Of a stretch of 64,000 bases of DNA, positions 33,221-42,130 are shown piece by piece. Source of the DNA: an uncultured cyanobacterium (GTDB lineage Bacteria > Cyanobacteriota > Cyanobacteriia > Pseudanabaenales > Pseudanabaenaceae); assembly GCA_963703315.1 (NCBI GenBank), contig OY969811.1:1600001-1664000 (forward strand). The letters are read 5' to 3'. Below the pieces are notes generated by a model. That model made no database searches, was not told where the DNA came from, and saw only the letters and a list, made by a program, of their open reading frames with translations. Position 1 is the first letter of the stretch. The number at the start of each line of letters is the position of its first letter. The position numbers were made by a program, and so were the translations under genes.

Positions 33221-33481
33221 CTATCTATAAGCTTCTTTACGATGAGCAATCAAAAAAATCGCAATATTCTTTTTCTCCTCCTCAACATAATAAATAACCC
33301 TGTAATTGCCAATACGATATCGCCAATATCCCAAATAATTGCCCTTTAGCTTTTTAATATCAGCACCCTTGTAAGGGTTTTGACTCAAGTTATCAATACA
33401 ATCATCTATTTGAACAGCTAACTCATCACTAGCTTTTTCGTAAAACTTTTGAGCCTTACGAGTCATTGATACCTCATACAT
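33221..33481 (-). CDS. RelE/ParE family toxin
   Basis: IKKLKG..GYWRYRIGNYRVIY...HRKEAYR. Confidence 0.9.
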   Translation of the reverse strand: MYEVSMTRKAQKFYEKASDELAVQIDDCIDNLSQNPYKGADIKKLKGNYLGYWRYRIGNYRVIYYVEEEKKNIAIFLIAHRKEAYR

Positions 33482-33716
33482 GGCGGCGAATGCTCTTAAA
33501 AGAAACTACATCGCCATTTTCAAAATCTTGCAAAGCCTCTTGAAAATCTTCCTTAAAATTAGGAATGCTCAGCAACTCCTCTGTTGCATCATTGCTTTCT
33601 CTTTCATCAAGATAAGCCATAAAGTCAGCCGCCACCCGTAACCTCTCAGGTGACAACCTTTGTAAAATCGCCTCAATTTTCTGCACAGTATGGAGATTTT
33701 CAGCAATAGCTTCCAT
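33474..33716 (-). CDS. Antitoxin upstream of RelE
   Basis: Small acidic protein (LSPERLRVAADFMAYL...ATEELLSIP) overlapping the toxin start. Confidence 0.8.
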   Translation of the reverse strand: MEAIAENLHTVQKIEAILQRLSPERLRVAADFMAYLDERESNDATEELLSIPNFKEDFQEALQDFENGDVVSFKSIRRHV

Positions 33717-33763
33717 ATGAATCACCCGAAAAATATACTGCAAACATTTTACAAGAAATTTAG

Positions 33764-34072
33764 TTAACTCGGTTTAACCGTTACCGTCAGTCTTAACCCC
33801 AAACTATCCAACCACGCCGCTAAATCATACACCGCTTGACTTTTATCACTTACGCCAAAATCTCTCACCCATTGCCGATCGCCTTCACCACCCAATGAGA
33901 TCGCCACATCATCAAGCGCCGAAGCCAACAACTCAGGCTCAGGATCAGCTTCCTCCAAAATTGCCGCAATATAGCCAGCCGCCCTTTCAGGTTCTTTGAG
34001 CGAATTAACTAAATATTCTTGATAATCTCTACTGGTCGAGATTTTGGGGATTTTCTGGGATTGTGACTCCAT
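33764..34072 (-). CDS. Addiction-module antidote-like protein (orphan)
   Basis: YQEYLVNSLKEPERAAGYIAAILEE...LGLRLTV. Confidence 0.7.
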   Translation of the reverse strand: MESQSQKIPKISTSRDYQEYLVNSLKEPERAAGYIAAILEEADPEPELLASALDDVAISLGGEGDRQWVRDFGVSDKSQAVYDLAAWLDSLGLRLTVTVKPS

Positions 34073-34192
34073 AGAACAAATTCTTGAGTAGGGACAGATA
34101 ACGACAATTAAGACAGATATTATCTTCCCTCAAATGTCCTTCACTTCCACAAATACAAACGCTAAGTTAAGCACATCGAATCTAACTTAGTT

Positions 34193-34353
34193 ATGAACAC
34201 CCACAAACAAATCCAACAAATCGCCGCCATCGACGAACTCCTCGATCAAGCGATCGCTCTTACCCCCATCCGCAAACCCAAAGACCTCAACCACCTCCAA
34301 CGCCGCCAACAACAACGCGCCATCAGCAACGACATGATCCGCGTCGCGATCGC
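34193..34353 (+). pseudogene. Truncated DUF4258-like (RelE-fold) gene, cut at a HIP1 site
   Basis: HLQRRQQQRAISNDMI motif; the sequence switches at GCGATCGC (34346-34353) to a copy of 33899-34004. Confidence 0.55.
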
Positions 34354-34454
34354 CACATCATCAAGCGCCGAAGCCAACAACTCAGGCTCAGGATCGGATT
34401 CCTCCAAAATAGCCGCAATATAGCCAGCCGCCCTTTCAGGATCTTTGAGCGAAT
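34348..34454 (-). pseudogene. Partial duplicate of the antidote gene at 33764-34072
   Basis: About 105-bp direct repeat of 33899-34004 (SLKDPERAAGYIAAILEESDPEPELLASALDDVAI). Confidence 0.8.
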
Positions 34455-34487
34455 GATTTACGCAGAGCTTCCTTAATCGACACTTGC

Positions 34488-34715
34488 TTGCAGAATGCAC
34501 GTTTGAATGGTGCAAATTTGGCGGGGGTAGACTTGCGGACAGCCAATCTCACTGATGCAGATTTTGAACAGTTTGAAAGTATTGCAGGGGCAGATTTTAC
34601 CTATGTTGTCGGTTTGACTGACCAAATGCGATCGCGCCTACTCAGTCATCCGCAACAAGATCTAGAAACGCTTAATCCTTTAACTCTGAAGACAACATTA
34701 GCCAGTTTGTCTTAG
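34488..34715 (+). pseudogene. 3' remnant of a pentapeptide-repeat protein
   Basis: ARLNGANLAGVDLRTANLTDADF repeats; no convincing start. Confidence 0.65.
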
Positions 34716-37035: not shown

Positions 37036-37321
37036 TTTTGTTAGTTGTGAGATTACTTAAAAGTGCGATCTACAATTGTTACACAAAACTAATCAAAAGC
37101 CCAAGTTAAATTTCAAAAAATCCAAAAAATAAATCAAACTTATAGATGTCCTATCCAATCCCCCATCAACAGCAATCATCTATTCAGTCCATATAGCCAG
37201 TAAAAAACACATCAACCAGCGATCGCCTATCCAATCCCCATAACTAGTGAAGGTTTTCTAAGTCTGCTAAGTCTTGCAGTCTGCCAGATGCTAGTTTGTT
37301 TTTCTTGAGATTATCAAGATC

Positions 37322-37397
37322 GTTGATAGAGTTTGTAAACTAAGCGATCGCACTCCTTTTCTAACTCGCTCGTATCAGCATGGTGATCGCCTTTTTT
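37322..37397 (-). repeat. RM-gene 3'-end repeat, copy A (truncated)
   Basis: Encodes KKGDHHADTSELEKECDRLVYKLYQ. Confidence 0.85.
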
Positions 37398-37527
37398 GAT
37401 GTTCATCGCTAAATCGGTAAGTACCTCAATCGAATTGAAACATCGCTTACGGACATAATCACGCCGTTTGTAAGTTCTGTGGCATAGTCATTTAAAATTG
37501 CTAACAAATGACGGTTAACTACTTCTC

Positions 37528-38594
37528 GGCACTGGTCATTGAATTAGTGGTATGAGAAAATAGAGGCAGAGGAAAGGAGAAAGCTATGGAATGCCCCCAC
37601 TGCCAGAGCCAAAAGATCATCAAAAATGGCAAACATCATCACCAAGATGGCAAAGCTATCCAGAACTATTTGTGTAAAGGATGCGGCAAGAGATTTAGTG
37701 AAAGGACAGGAACGCCAATGTCAAGGCTGAGAACACCAGCGAGTGTCGTATCCTTAGCGCTAAAGATGAGGAGTGAAGGGATGGGAATCAGAGCCAGTGG
37801 CAGAGTCCTCGAAAAATCCCATGTCAGCATCATGAGATGGGAGCAAAAATTGGCAACCCAGTCACAGCAATGGAGTCCAGATGCCCCAGCAGGAGGAGAT
37901 ATAACAGTCGAGGGAGATGAGGTTTACACTCGCGTAGGCGAGAACCTTCCCCCCCTCAAAGTCAAAAGGATGGACAGTGACATTCATTGAGCGTAAGAGT
38001 CGCTATTGGATTGAGGCAAGGGTAGGACTCAAAACCACTGAATTATTTACTAAAGCAACCAAAACAGCATGGCAATGGGCAAAGGCAAGTCAATACATCC
38101 GATGGTTTACCGATGGCGAAAGACGCTATGCCCAACAACTATGGCAAATGGCAAGTGTGCGCCTCAAATCCACTGAAGTAAGTCGTGAGTATAGACATCG
38201 CAAGGTATGGCGACATGGCTTAGAAGTTGCGATCAAAATTAAAAGTTCACAGGGAAATCGTCGGGTCGAATGGCTCAAACCTGAGCATCCCTATACGGCT
38301 ATTAGCGACAAGTGTGACATTCATGCCAATCACAATGAAGCTAACAACAGTGCTTTGAGAAGGAGATGTAGTGCTTATCGTCGCAGACAAAACCTATATG
38401 CGAAGAATACCGAAGGATTACAACGAGCAGTCACTGTGCAAAGATTAGTTCACAACTGGGTGAGACCTCATGTGGGCTTAGGGAAGAATAAGACTCCAGT
38501 TATGGCGATCGGGCTATATCATCGACCGCTTTCCATGCTGGAGTTGCTTTCACTACGAGGCTTTCACTCCCTCACGATTTAACTGACCAGTGCC
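37528..38594 (+). mobile_element. IS1-family insertion sequence
   Basis: Terminal IRs GGCACTGGTCA...TGACCAGTGCC; 8-bp target duplication TACTTCTC at 37520-37527 and 38595-38602. Confidence 0.93.
37586..38582 (+). CDS. IS1 transposase in two frames (InsA-like Zn ribbon/HTH plus DDE domain) joined at a C7 run
   Basis: CPHCQ..CKGCG, EGMGIRASGR, VEGDEVYT, frame change at CTTCCCCCCCTCA (~37946-37958), WFTDGE, NHNEANNSALRRR. Confidence 0.88.
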
Positions 38595-38842
38595 TACTTC
38601 TCGGCTTACATTTCCTAAACGAAATAAAATAACGCTGGGTAGGCTTTCACCACTAATTGCTAATAGCTGGGCAAAGTCTAAATCTACGGTCAGTAATATT
38701 CGTTCTTCTTGGCGAGCTTTTTCTAAAATATTGGGATCTGTCATCTTTTCTAGATTCTCTTCAATCAGGTGGATTGCGTCATAACCTTGTTCTCTCAAGA
38801 GTGCAATTGTGCGGGGAGAGATGCCCATATCGCCTAAGAATT

Positions 38843-39091
38843 TCATACTGCTTGAGGGATTTGCCAAAAGATGACTCGCTCTTGGGTGAGCCAAGCGGCA
38901 TATCTAAGCGCTTGCTGGATGTCTTCTAGTTCGAGATAGGGATAGTCTTCGATGATTTCTGCTGTTGATAAGCCGTTGGCGATGAGGTTGATGACTACGG
39001 ATACGGGTATCCGCATTCCGCGAATGCAAGCTTGACCTGCCATGATTTTTGGGTCAAAGGTTATGCGATCTAGTCCTGCTATTGCTTTCAT
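38843..39091 (-). CDS. DUF433 antitoxin
   Basis: RITFDPKIMAGQACIRGMRIPV...YPYLELEDIQQAL.YAA. Confidence 0.92.
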   Translation of the reverse strand: MKAIAGLDRITFDPKIMAGQACIRGMRIPVSVVINLIANGLSTAEIIEDYPYLELEDIQQALRYAAWLTQERVIFWQIPQAV

Positions 39092-39103
39092 TGTTTTTGC
39101 CTC

Positions 39104-39262
39104 TTATTCTATTTTAATGGCTGTGTATTCTTGTTCTGTTAGTTCAAATTCTGGGTCGATCACTTTTACTTCGTCAGAGGTGAGTTGATAGAGTTTGTAA
39201 ACTAAGCGATCGCATTCTTTTTCTAGTTCGCTCGTATCAGCATGGCGATCGCCTTTTTTAGC
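39104..39262 (-). repeat. RM-gene 3'-end repeat, copy B
   Basis: Encodes AKKGDRHADTSELEKECDRLVYKLYQLTSDEVKVIDPEFELTEQEYTAIKIE*, followed by GAGG and the DUF433 ATG. Confidence 0.9.
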
Positions 39263-39291
39263 GGGTGAGAATTTTTATTATCCAGTTTAAA

Positions 39292-39628
39292 TTAACTTTG
39301 TTGTTGATATTCTGTGATGATATCCCTAATCTCGTCAGCTTCAATGTCTGACTGTTCAGACTTAGGATAAATAGTTAGTAAAACTATTCCTGTTAATGTT
39401 TTGAGATAATAAATTAGGCGATAACCTCCACTTTTTCCTTTCTTAATATCACTATTTTTAACTCTTAGTTTAAACACAGGATAGCCAATCCCTGATATTT
39501 GATTCTCCTTGCTCTAGTTGGTTGATAACTGGTTGGAGGTCTTGACGAATGTTTCGATATTTTTTGGCAAGAGTGCGTATATTTTTCTGAAAAGCTGGTG
39601 AGGCTTCAATTTGGATTGGGTTAGTCAT
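39292..39628 (-). pseudogene. RelE/HigB-like toxin, frameshifted
   Basis: MTNPIQIEASPAFQKNIRTLAKKYRNIRQDLQPVINQLEQGE, frame change near 39500, then QISGIGYPVFKLRVKNSDIKKGKSGGYRLIYY. Confidence 0.82.
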
Positions 39629-39854
39629 TTTCTAGCCCTTCCCAAAGTTGAGATAGTGGAATTGTTTGACCTGTCATCGCTTCGTGCCATGCTTGGCGAA
39701 AGTCAGATATTATTTCTTCTTTAGTGAAGTCTTCTGGTGATTCTGGAATCAGTACGATGATTTCTACTCGACTATTTTTGTTTTTCAGTAGTGGACTGTC
39801 TAGGGTTATTTGCCCTTGTTCGTTGATGGTTGCCATTGCTTTAAGTGCTTTCAT
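39621..39854 (-). CDS. RelN-like antitoxin
   Basis: ATINEQGQITLDSPL...RVEIIVLIPE...FRQAWHEAMTGQTIPLSQLW; overlaps the toxin start. Confidence 0.82.
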   Translation of the reverse strand: MKALKAMATINEQGQITLDSPLLKNKNSRVEIIVLIPESPEDFTKEEIISDFRQAWHEAMTGQTIPLSQLWEGLEND

Positions 39855-39878
39855 GTTTTTATTCCTTAGTTAGAAGTT

Positions 39879-40025
39879 TTACTTTGTTTTAATTACTGTG
39901 TATTCTTGTTCTGTTAGTTCAAATTCTGGGTCGATCGCTTTTACTTCGTCAATAGGTGAGTTGATAGAGTTTGTAAACTAAATTATCGATCACCTTTTCT
40001 AGTTCGCTCGTATCAGCATTAGGAT
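39879..40025 (-). repeat. RM-gene 3'-end repeat, copy C
   Basis: Encodes NPNADTSELEKVIDNLVYKLYQLT / DEVKAIDPEFELTEQEYTVIKTK* with a 1-nt frame slip. Confidence 0.88.
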
Positions 40026-40031
40026 TAATGT

Positions 40032-40397
40032 TTACCTCTTTCTGATTCTAAATTTATTCTGATCGACAATTACAGTTGCACCAATTATCTCTGGCAAATT
40101 AACTTGACTAATAAATTGCTCTAATACTTGCCGAATTTCTATAGCGATCGCTTCAAAGGGAAATCTTAAAATAATTAAACCTCAATGTGTATTTGGTGGA
40201 TAGTTTTTAATGTTTGACCATCCGAGATCGCGGCTAATGATTATTCTTTGTTCTGTTTGGGCGAATATAAATATTTCAGGATCTTTTGTGCCGCTAAGTC
40301 CAGATGTTTTGATGTGAATGGCATCATGCCCTTTGTCGTTGAGTAAAGTTTCTAAAATAAGTGGACAATCTTCATCGATTAGAAAACGTAATTTCAA
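40032..40397 (-). pseudogene. DUF5615 PIN-like toxin with an in-frame nonsense codon
   Basis: RFLIDEDCP...ISRDLGW...PPNTH-TGA-GLIILRFP...VIVDQNKFRIRKR*; the frame continues past TGA at 40182-40184. Confidence 0.85.
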
Positions 40398-40636
40398 CTT
40401 ACTTTCTCCATTGAATAGACTGTTTCATAGTTTAAAAGCTCGGAAAAGTAAGCAAGTGAGGCAAGAATCTGTTCGTGGGTAACTGCATATTCTTGAATTA
40501 CTTCGTCATAGGTCATGCCACCAGCGAGGGAGCCGATAATTATGGCGATCGGAAGACGAGTTCCTTTTAGTACGGGTTTACCATGTTGGATTTCGTTGTC
40601 AATGGTAATTACATCAGTTAGTATACTTTTTTTCAT
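40394..40636 (-). CDS. DUF433 antitoxin
   Basis: ITIDNEIQHGKPVLKGTRLPI...GMTYDEVIQEY. Confidence 0.9.
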   Translation of the reverse strand: MKKSILTDVITIDNEIQHGKPVLKGTRLPIAIIIGSLAGGMTYDEVIQEYAVTHEQILASLAYFSELLNYETVYSMEKVS

Positions 40637-40699
40637 AATCTATATTCCTTATAAAAGCTAAACATTTTTACAAAAATCTACACCTTATCTTTTCCCTTG

Positions 40700-40816
40700 T
40701 CACCTCTCTCCTTCTACTATTTTAATCTCTTCTTCTGTCAATCCGTAAAGTTGATAGACTAAACGATCGCACTCCTTTTCTAATTCGCTCGTATCAGCAT
40801 GGCGATCGCCTTTTTT
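40700..40816 (-). repeat. RM-gene 3'-end repeat, copy D (alternative terminus)
   Basis: Encodes KKGDRHADTSELEKECDRLVYQLYGLTEEEIKIVEGER*. Confidence 0.88.
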
Positions 40817-40825
40817 AGTAGTTTG

Positions 40826-41098
40826 TCATGGTTTAAGCAAATTGACTGGATAAGCTCGAACTGCTTCGTCTACTGTCGCGATCGCCATATTATTTTGTAT
40901 AGCTTGACAAATAAGCATTCTGTCAAAGGGATCACGATGTAAAGATGGGAGTTTGGCTAGTTGAGTTACACTGGCTTGATCGAGGTCAAGATTAAGAATT
41001 TGATGGCGATCGCAGTGTTTAGGGAAATATATTTCAGGTGATTCTGGTAATGGTAATTTGCCTAGCTGATATTTAACAATGGCTTCCCAAGTTGACAC
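40826..41098 (-). pseudogene. PIN/VapC toxin lacking its N-terminus
   Basis: STWEAIVK...HRDPFDRMLICQA..IATVD present, but the N-terminal LLDT segment is absent; fused out of frame to the upstream antitoxin. Confidence 0.8.
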
Positions 41099-41343
41099 AA
41101 CATTTCTTCTGGTAGCGGTGCATCAAAGTCTTCAGGGACGACAAATTCTCCAACACATAAACCAAATGGGCGTTGTTTTTTATTCTTTGTTGTAACTGCT
41201 TTGGATGAGTTTTGATCTTTTAAGGTTTCTGTTGTCTGGATGTCTTCGAGTGTATCTAGGTCTTCTGCAAGAATCCGAATTAGTTTAACTTTTTCCGTTA
41301 CAGTGAGTTTTCGGGCGGCGGGTAGTAGTTCGGCGAGTGTCAT
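41062..41343 (-). CDS. Antitoxin-like protein with DUF2281-type C-terminus (probably chimeric)
   Basis: MTLAELLPAARKLTVTEKVKLIRILAEDL + RPFGLCVGEFVVPEDFDAPLPEE. Confidence 0.7.
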   Translation of the reverse strand: MTLAELLPAARKLTVTEKVKLIRILAEDLDTLEDIQTTETLKDQNSSKAVTTKNKKQRPFGLCVGEFVVPEDFDAPLPEEMLCQLGKPLLNIS

Positions 41344-41354
41344 TGTTTTACCTC

Positions 41355-41905
41355 TTACTCTGTTTTAATTGCTATATATTCTTGTTCTGTTAGTTCAAAT
41401 TCTGGGTCGATGACAGAGGCAATCGCAGGTTCCGCAATTTGTTTATAAAAGAAATCTGTCTTCTTGCCACTCAGCCGCCCATCTTCAAAATCCTTAAACT
41501 TCTTAACTAAAGCCTTATCGCTAAAAAACAACTCCTCAAATATCTTCGCATCAAAAATAAACCACTCATAAATATTGGTCACCACCAAATGCTTAACCCC
41601 AATATTTCCATGCTTCTCCTTTTCACGCAAAAAATATAAAACCAACTGCTGCAACGCCTTAGCATTGAGATTGTCAACTTTCGGCATTTCCGCGCTATTA
41701 GTTTTAGATAGCGATCGCCGTAATAGGTCTTTTTGAGAAACTCAATCAGCAAATTTTTATTAAATTCTTCATCCTTTTTGCTGTCACAAAGCTCAAGCAT
41801 CCGCCCCAAATTAGCCTTAAACCCCTGAATATTCTCAGCATCAGGTTTGATTTTTAAGTCAGTCCTGTTTAACGCTTGCTTAGGTTCGAGCTTATTGACG
41901 ATCAT
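41355..41905 (-). pseudogene. Gutted type IIG (Eco57I-like) restriction-modification gene: N-terminal fragments fused to the extreme C-terminus (repeat copy E, 41355-41414)
   Basis: KQALNR..LKIKP...EEFNKNL..EFLKKTYY, frameshift next to HIP1 at 41711, EMP...NLNAKALQQLVLYFLRE...KHLVVTNIYEWFIFDA...TDFFYKQIA, then directly VIDPEFELTEQEYIAIKTE*. No methyltransferase motifs remain. Confidence 0.75.
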
Positions 41906-42130
41906 CAAACTTTATATTTAGCGAAATTATTGGCTAGTCCCATTATGCCTAATTTTGCAACCAGCGATCGCCCCCAATTGGTTGGTAAATCTACTCGCGC
42001 CCATTTACAATGCGATCGCCACACTCATAAACCTATCAACAAGCAAGCGGCGATCGCTTATTGGCATTGTTTCGACATTCTGAAGAAATTTTTTGCGTTA
42101 ATTCAACTGAATAACAAAGAAACTAGATTC

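Follow-up and report, generated by a model that had tools for sequence, protein, structure and literature searches.

Repeated 3' tails of type IIG restriction-modification genes bracket a shared pool of toxin-antitoxin cassettes in cyanobacteria

In the complete, single-contig genome of a cyanobacterium (4.57 Mb, here named G000), a stretch of 64,000 nucleotides (G000:C1:1600001-1664000, here called the window) carries five copies of the 3' tail of a type IIG restriction-modification (RM) gene, which bracket four toxin-antitoxin (TA) gene pairs. How does the coding end of an RM gene come to separate a row of small gene pairs when no integrase is linked to them? In this study, we compared the array with related loci and found that most of them are built in the same way, with cassettes from a common pool arranged in random order. 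From these sequence comparisons we infer, as a probable though by no means secure explanation, that the tails act as short homology handles at which the homologous recombination of the host inserts, exchanges, duplicates and removes pool cassettes without an integrase.

Spread of the arrays and their cassette pool

With one genome sampled per species, the tail was matched as protein in 24 of 36 genomes of the same genus and as DNA in 40 of 71 genomes of the family. Forty regions picked from a subset of these hits gave, together with two loci of G000, a set of 42 loci from 32 genomes with 161 tail copies. Two or more tail copies are present at 39 of the 42 loci, with a maximum of nine, and at 15 loci an RM frame of more than 1,000 amino acids ends in the first repeat. 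Relatives with an intact RM gene followed by a variable number and order of tail-plus-TA units, as foreseen in an earlier reading of the window (here called the original prediction), do therefore exist. Their RM proteins match Pfam Eco57I, N6_Mtase and TaqI_C and, at full length, PADLOC REase_MTase_IIG (E = 7e-236), which supports the earlier assignment of the repeat to a type IIG tail and shows a predicted single chain that combines a nuclease-side region, an N6 methyltransferase and a TaqI-like target-recognition domain. The alleles share mostly 50 to 98% identity, and 8 to 36% over residues ~900 to 1200, the specificity region, except for one pair at ~90%; three of the 15 long alleles belong to a distant IIG family. 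The target-recognition domain (TRD) lies upstream of the repeat. In two loci from two genera (L034 and L059), residues ~840 to 1200 share 88 to 93% identity, where other alleles stay at 8 to 36%, a likeness that is likely due to TRD transfer.

The chromosomal flanks of the arrays are mostly different loci. Arrays of several genomes (L035, L060, L062, L065 and L070) adjoin one and the same site (G000:C1 ~789380), with orientations that are opposite between genomes, and a common downstream flank with a terminal half repeat lies behind RM genes of two distant IIG families in L038 and L051. When empty sites were compared, flanks were too diverged, with one suggestive case; a HIP1 octamer lies near the G000 empty site at ~789380. 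The neighborhood of rpmG, for which an array locus had been expected across strains, was ruled out as a target: none of 20 fetched relatives (of 37 hits) carried RM or array sequence there, and arrays were found at other sites. Two of these 20 are short contig ends, and six run from rpmG upstream to a Rieske gene within 0.04 to 0.95 kb.

Between the repeats, we found 13 two-gene classes with 7 to 16 members each (class s1, for example, has 15 copies in 15 genomes); a single divergent array has three further units that are private to it. Pfam assigned four classes to DUF433/DUF5615, four to PIN, two to RelE/YafQ, two to MNT-HEPN and one to a DUF6036 pair, and gave no match for the first gene in 7 of the 13 classes. 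As adjacent small gene pairs of known antitoxin and toxin families, the cassettes are predicted TA modules; in the MNT-HEPN pairs we take MNT to be the antitoxin. Median cassette identity within the genus is 91 to 96%, and two neighboring core genes reach 83 to 87% and 81 to 91% when compared with the window. Cassettes from another genus and another family are still 86 to 97% identical to pool members, and named Pseudanabaena records contain the same cassettes, which makes Pseudanabaena the likely genus of G000.

The classes recur mostly at different chromosomal sites and behind different RM alleles. Among 89 junctions between cassettes, 70 are distinct, with 69.5 ± 2.9 expected after shuffling, i.e., cassette order is random. 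Furthermore, how similar two genomes are in one class says little about their similarity in another (rho = 0.10, P = 0.065, 363 pairs). Two arrays hold one cassette twice (99.9% and 99.0% identical), in both cases at non-adjacent positions with different neighbors, and the chimeric and fused units found within arrays indicate that recombination and deletion take place inside them.

In a wider sample, long arrays of the shared pool were present in 10 of 77 loci, all cyanobacterial and some of them probably from the same genomes as the 42-locus set. A phylum sample (77 of 401 tail-bearing genomes) yielded few closely spaced tail copies outside the genus among the matches listed. Outside the pool, a second tail copy without HIP1 was seen at 14 of 67 loci from several phyla, three of the 14 being weak or internal tandems; the cargo at these loci is mixed, defense-like or mobile, with TA genes in one cyanobacterial case. 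At L110:1799-2372, in a cyanobacterium from a different family, an RM tail is immediately followed by an s12-like pair (78%). The repeat was absent from the plasmid and phage collections searched, and among solved structures none covers the tail.

The exchange zone in the tail

To locate the joint, tail copies were aligned and compared column by column, with locus L043 left out; 35 of the 161 copies lack one anchor, and 24 are unscored for the middle segment. Related genomes are not independent, so that the P values of this analysis overstate the support.

Tails occur in a long and a short form. In 122 of 124 copies the form agrees with the downstream cassette, the two exceptions lying in the divergent array; agreement with the upstream cassette is seen in 64 of 91, a rate that a constant guess of "long" would reach as well. 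RM-attached tails in front of a pool cassette have the type of the first cassette in 18 of 18 cases, in line with the earlier proposal that each cassette brings its own terminus. Because this agreement with the downstream cassette holds on the RM gene as well, a cassette consists of a right tail, a TA pair and a left tail. The RM gene gets its last ~25 to 35 codons from the first cassette, with the frame kept; frame shifts between the anchors occur in 0 of 20 RM-attached tails versus 17 of 106 orphans (P = 0.07).

Columns to the left of the first GCGATC site track the upstream cassette (mismatch of 0.31 versus 0.62), while columns 30 to 36 track the downstream cassette (0.29 versus 0.43), such tracking starting at column ~32. 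The middle 30 bp between the two GCGATC sites track neither cassette (5.78 and 5.63 versus 5.69 mismatches) and instead track the array (4.34 versus 5.65 ± 0.2 after permutation, 0 of 1,000), with adjacent copies most alike (4.05 versus 4.62 ± 0.21, P = 0.008). Likeness at the level of the array reaches the right part of the tail, too. Graded tracking together with this array-level likeness indicates that the joint is a zone rather than a base, with copying between repeats. Exchange thus falls in the ~40 bp between the two GCGATC sites, a diffuse zone with homogenization as expected from homologous recombination.

The window array as a decaying example

In the window, all five repeats of the original prediction were located on the minus strand by sequence and blastn, and the same order was read: RM 5' remnant, repeat E, antitoxin/PIN, repeat D, DUF433/DUF5615, repeat C, antitoxin/RelE, repeat B, DUF433/DUF5615, repeat A. 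The repeats translate as the C-terminal tail of a type IIG RM protein (~45 codons), and the long and short forms correspond to the two termini described earlier. They are 76 to 93% identical to a reference copy, and blastn between copies gave E values from 1e-8 to 1e-46 (4.57-Mb genome). The features are as follows.

41415..41908, minus strand: RM 5' remnant, type IIG (DUF7149); Pfam DUF7149 with E = 3e-13 and 3e-39, PADLOC IIG with E = 2e-17, blastn against intact RM genes
41355..41414, minus strand: repeat E, right part of the long RM tail, then stop, GAGG and next ATG; sequence and blastn
40826..41343, minus strand: cassette of class s1, antitoxin-like gene and PIN toxin, fused; Pfam PIN and alignment with an intact copy
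40700..40818, minus strand: repeat D, short RM tail (ending in LVYQLYGLTEEEIKIVEGER and a stop; terminus EEEIKIVEGER and stop), HIP1 at site 1; sequence and blastn
40032..40636, minus strand: cassette of class s4, intact DUF433 and DUF5615 with a premature stop at 40182; Pfam and open reading frame lengths compared with intact copies
39879..40019, minus strand: repeat C, long RM tail with a +1 frameshift; blastn
39292..39854, minus strand: cassette of class s8, 77-amino-acid antitoxin-like gene and RelE-family toxin broken by a short deletion; Pfam RelE with E = 8e-6 here and 1e-7 in an intact copy
39104..39262, minus strand: repeat B, complete long RM tail (terminus VIDPEFELTEQEYTAIKIE and stop), two HIP1 sites, then stop, GAGG and next ATG; sequence and blastn
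37402..39091, minus strand: cassette of class s0, intact DUF433 (38843-39091) and DUF5615 interrupted by an insertion sequence (IS); Pfam and a two-piece match with an intact copy
37528..38594, plus strand: IS of 1067 bp with an 8-bp target duplication, incidental; weak InsA-type zinc ribbon match, and a joint skipping 1075 bases in three other runs
37322..37397, minus strand: repeat A, of which only the left part remains, ending at tail column 58; sequence comparison
37254..37321, minus strand: remainder (3' end) of a fifth cassette after a deletion, class s12 (DUF6036 nucleotidyltransferase); 88% match across 68 bp, and Pfam for an intact copy

Stop, GAGG and ATG behind repeats B and E, HIP1 octamers in A, B and D, and the cargo named by Pfam (a PIN fragment, DUF433/DUF5615 twice and RelE) all agree with the original prediction; the 77-amino-acid gene of s8, named RelN there, had no Pfam match.

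The array is a decaying example of its kind, and neither its broken genes nor the IS and the s12 remnant had been noticed in the original prediction. The toxins, i.e., the second genes, of all four cassettes are broken, that of s1 by a deletion of ~130 bp which removed its start and fused the antitoxin-like gene to PIN. The RM gene has an internal deletion of 94 nt at 41707/41708, and a second deletion, of at least 3.1 kb and with a microhomology of 7 nt (41407-41413), has brought its remnant up against repeat E. Contigs over the cassettes are also present in four RNA-library runs, possibly due to DNA in those libraries.

Elsewhere in G000, the only other DNA copies of the tail are two at a second RM locus (C1:1077152-1078027). 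Since copies in the 4.57-Mb genome are confined to two RM loci, the repeat is not a dispersed element, a reading that was ruled out by the blastn search against the own genome. The second locus (L001:8147-12028, i.e., G000:C1:1074146-1078027) has a type IIG frame of 1045 amino acids without the N-terminal DUF7149; behind it come a single s2 cassette, whose toxin is broken, and half a repeat. A third type IIG-like gene of 1296 amino acids (L002, G000:C1:462225-462308) has a diverged tail, no DNA tail match and no array. Apart from any RM gene, an intact s12 cassette (92% identical) lies at G000:C1:1187045-1188189 behind another TA-like pair; of the long tail, no more than the final ~20 bp precede it. 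The IS of the window, presumably IS1-like, has ~3 copies in the genome (six end matches), and a matching end also interrupts tails in L035 and L049. Beyond rpsR, a second defense-like cluster at 33221-34515 of the window comprises a TA pair of the ParE family and duplicated small genes that contain two direct repeats of 107 bp (96%), with a gene for an 1129-amino-acid NACHT protein adjoining.

Candidate mechanisms and known systems

If host homologous recombination at the tails is the mechanism, a unit would originate when foreign DNA joins an RM tail and part of the tail is duplicated. A cassette flanked by two tails could then move by crossover with any other tail, be it on a sister chromosome copy, on an excised circle or on DNA from transformation; a ComEC-family gene is present in G000. 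HIP1 sites would probably increase the rate of exchange without being essential, and a cassette could be deleted once its toxin is broken. DNA between direct repeats is easily lost, so that addictive TA pairs would be the ones to persist. Of 116 internal cassettes scored by a length-and-motif rule, 75 have both genes intact, 31 only gene 1 and two only gene 2, a pattern that fits the established logic of TA systems, in which the toxin must be lost before the antitoxin. Addiction is thus likely to keep the TA cargo in place, and for integrons TA cassettes are described as penalizing excision (PMC13108822).

Several observations weigh against recombination at the tails as the explanation. Movement was never observed, and the contig data hold no circle; joints that go back within contigs fit other cassette orders rather than demonstrating circles. 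Repeats of 40 to 140 bp at 76 to 93% identity are short for RecA-type recombination. By eye, the 5' cassette boundary of near-identical recent pairs falls at columns ~28 to 45, tighter than free crossing-over, and a shift of ±4 nt at the second GCGATC site in 11 of 126 copies may point to a site preference. The pool, moreover, is closed: the 13 classes cover nearly all internal units outside the divergent array, which is unexpected if capture is easy. Lastly, gene 2 is longer than gene 1, and the integrity rule, based on length and motif, scored the fused s1 antitoxin of the window as intact.

That the array is an assembly artifact or a set of chance repeats is hardly credible. Contigs of the best run, X1, possibly the source sample, match each window cassette with zero differences. 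None of them spans a whole repeat, and the cassette order in the window lacks independent proof from this run; however, the copies are diverged, unique junctions are exactly matched by run contigs, and the same architecture recurs in the 39 loci, single-contig genomes among them. The observation itself is real. A dedicated recombinase acting in trans (integron-type, other tyrosine or serine) with the tail as att site would account for the uniform orientation, closed pool and random order, which resemble integron arrays; also in its favor are the integron integrases in 23 of 48 genomes of the genus and a conserved double-domain tyrosine recombinase ~113 kb away in G000. We nevertheless regard it as very improbable. 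The integron integrases occur independently of the arrays: they exceeded the cutoff in G079, G012, G004 and G083, all without a tail match, and in none of the array-bearing G007, G078, G020, G005 and G023, nor in G000 (best TIGR02249 match E = 2e-7, far below the cutoff). G000 has only two tyrosine-recombinase loci, and the conserved one, which is the nearer, is also present in genomes without arrays. The original prediction had no integrase in view, and this extends to all 42 loci, where 197 open reading frames within 4 kb held no recombinase motif and the recurrent families were only neighbors of the respective loci and RM fragments. Six folds of repeats B and D gave no attC-like hairpin (z from -1.76 to +0.14), there is no fixed crossover base, and the array had no Rfam match and nothing above shuffles in promoter and terminator scans; for serine recombinases, only the surroundings of the loci were covered.

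The original prediction further held that insertion events hit the RM 3' end and push older units downstream; taken further, each would strike the tail of an intact RM gene, perhaps with a TRD swap. Such polarity would fit the RM terminus being of the first cassette's type, the swapped specificity region just upstream of the tail, and the greater likeness of adjacent than of distant repeats (3.99 to 5.21), yet it appears improbable: neither toxin integrity by position (12/17, 7/11, 5/8, 5/6, 2/3, 4/7) nor mismatches to the RM gene's own tail (3.8, 5.1, 4.0, 4.5) show a gradient, shared neighbors, expected from shared old trailer ends, are not in excess, and orphan units have no TRD. It is also rather unlikely, though less so, that the two tail GCGATCGC/CGATCG sites are the crossover points of a host activity on methylated HIP1, with entry at site 2 and exit at site 1 duplicating the resident middle 30 bp at each insertion. 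The repeat core contains 17 HIP1 per kb, compared with 0.6 for RM bodies and cassettes and 1.8 for the genome as a whole; of 137 copies, 94 have a full HIP1 at site 1 and 81 have CGATCG at site 2. Several 3' junctions of cassettes fall at site 1, two of three +4 junctions read by eye as out-of-register joins of two site-2 alleles, and the middle segment tracks the array. HIP1 is reported to raise integration in Synechococcus PCC 7002 (10.1101/2024.09.10.611283), and site-specific and illegitimate recombination at HIP1 is cited in PMC4390886. However, most of the enrichment goes back to a single ancestral sequence that was copied over and over, -4 junctions fit slippage in GATCGATC equally well, and homogenization extends over the HIP1-free right part. 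HIP1 at array ends, convincing by eye, was dropped after an automated count, which placed no more than 3 of 17 terminal truncations at site 2 (P = 0.13). Nor is HIP1 required elsewhere, given the HIP1-free orphan tails outside the pool and the array of G014, which is nearly without it. Possible, if doubtful, is a broader version in which the arrays are an integrase-free analog of integrons: a TA library circulating in the genus and its neighbors, the coding ends of type IIG RM genes as att sites, two HIP1 sites directing crossover and duplicating the resident core at each insertion, every such RM gene a still-functional docking site, and RM specificity swaps and TA acquisition sharing one joint.

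Among known systems, the C-terminal displacement arrays of rhs genes (PMC2935791), to which the array had been likened, agree in part: as described there, an intact gene precedes a series of copies of its own conserved 3' portion, and a pool is shared across loci and species by homologous recombination with proposed circles and no integrase. In rhs, however, the variable tip belongs to the protein, and orphans are silent alternatives with variable, non-homologous C-terminal domains. Here, the displaced piece is an invariant tail of ~45 codons in two lengths, and the orphan units behind RM-attached tails hold only these two homologous variants; the cargo consists of separate two-gene TA operons, the repeats measure 100 to 160 bp, and polarity was unseen. 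Insertion with long target duplication, which has been described for Microcystis and other organisms, likewise involves integrase-free, RM-linked inserts and direct repeats of tens of bases (PMC2853133, which also reports allelic TRD diversity of type IIG genes), and our inserts are flanked by direct repeats of more than 30 bp without a mobility gene. There, RM genes are the insert and any sequence is targeted once, whereas here the RM end is targeted repeatedly by TA inserts; the words "toxin," "tandem" and "integron" are absent from the main text of that paper. Sedentary chromosomal integrons and integrase-less arrays (PMC13108822) share the co-oriented cassettes of variable order between repeated recombination sites. 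In contrast to these and to CALIN elements, the present arrays have neither IntI nor attC hairpins, their repeats are protein-coding RM sequence, they are short (at most nine repeats), and all cargo is TA-like. Finally, the same cargo families, PIN-COG2442 (DUF433) pairs among them, are described as abundant and clustered in cyanobacteria (PMC2701414), in a text that, as far as available, leaves the cause of clustering open and names no repeat or RM link.

No description of TA arrays on RM tails was found in the literature, most subscription papers and supplements lying outside the scope of the search. New here are the closed, shared and randomly ordered TA pool across 32 genomes, the mapped exchange zone and the negative integrase test in a complete genome. 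A benefit of the cassettes in phage defense is conceivable. With two HIP1 sites 30 bp apart, many alleles and scorable junctions, the arrays offer a small natural substrate for studying HIP1 function and, if the integron-like reading is true, would be a natural assay for what HIP1 does. More generally, they suggest a route to integron-like gene shuffling without a dedicated enzyme, in which the end of a defense gene serves as a reusable recombination handle, and offer one concrete cause for the clustering of TA genes in cyanobacteria and for the growth of defense islands behind RM genes.

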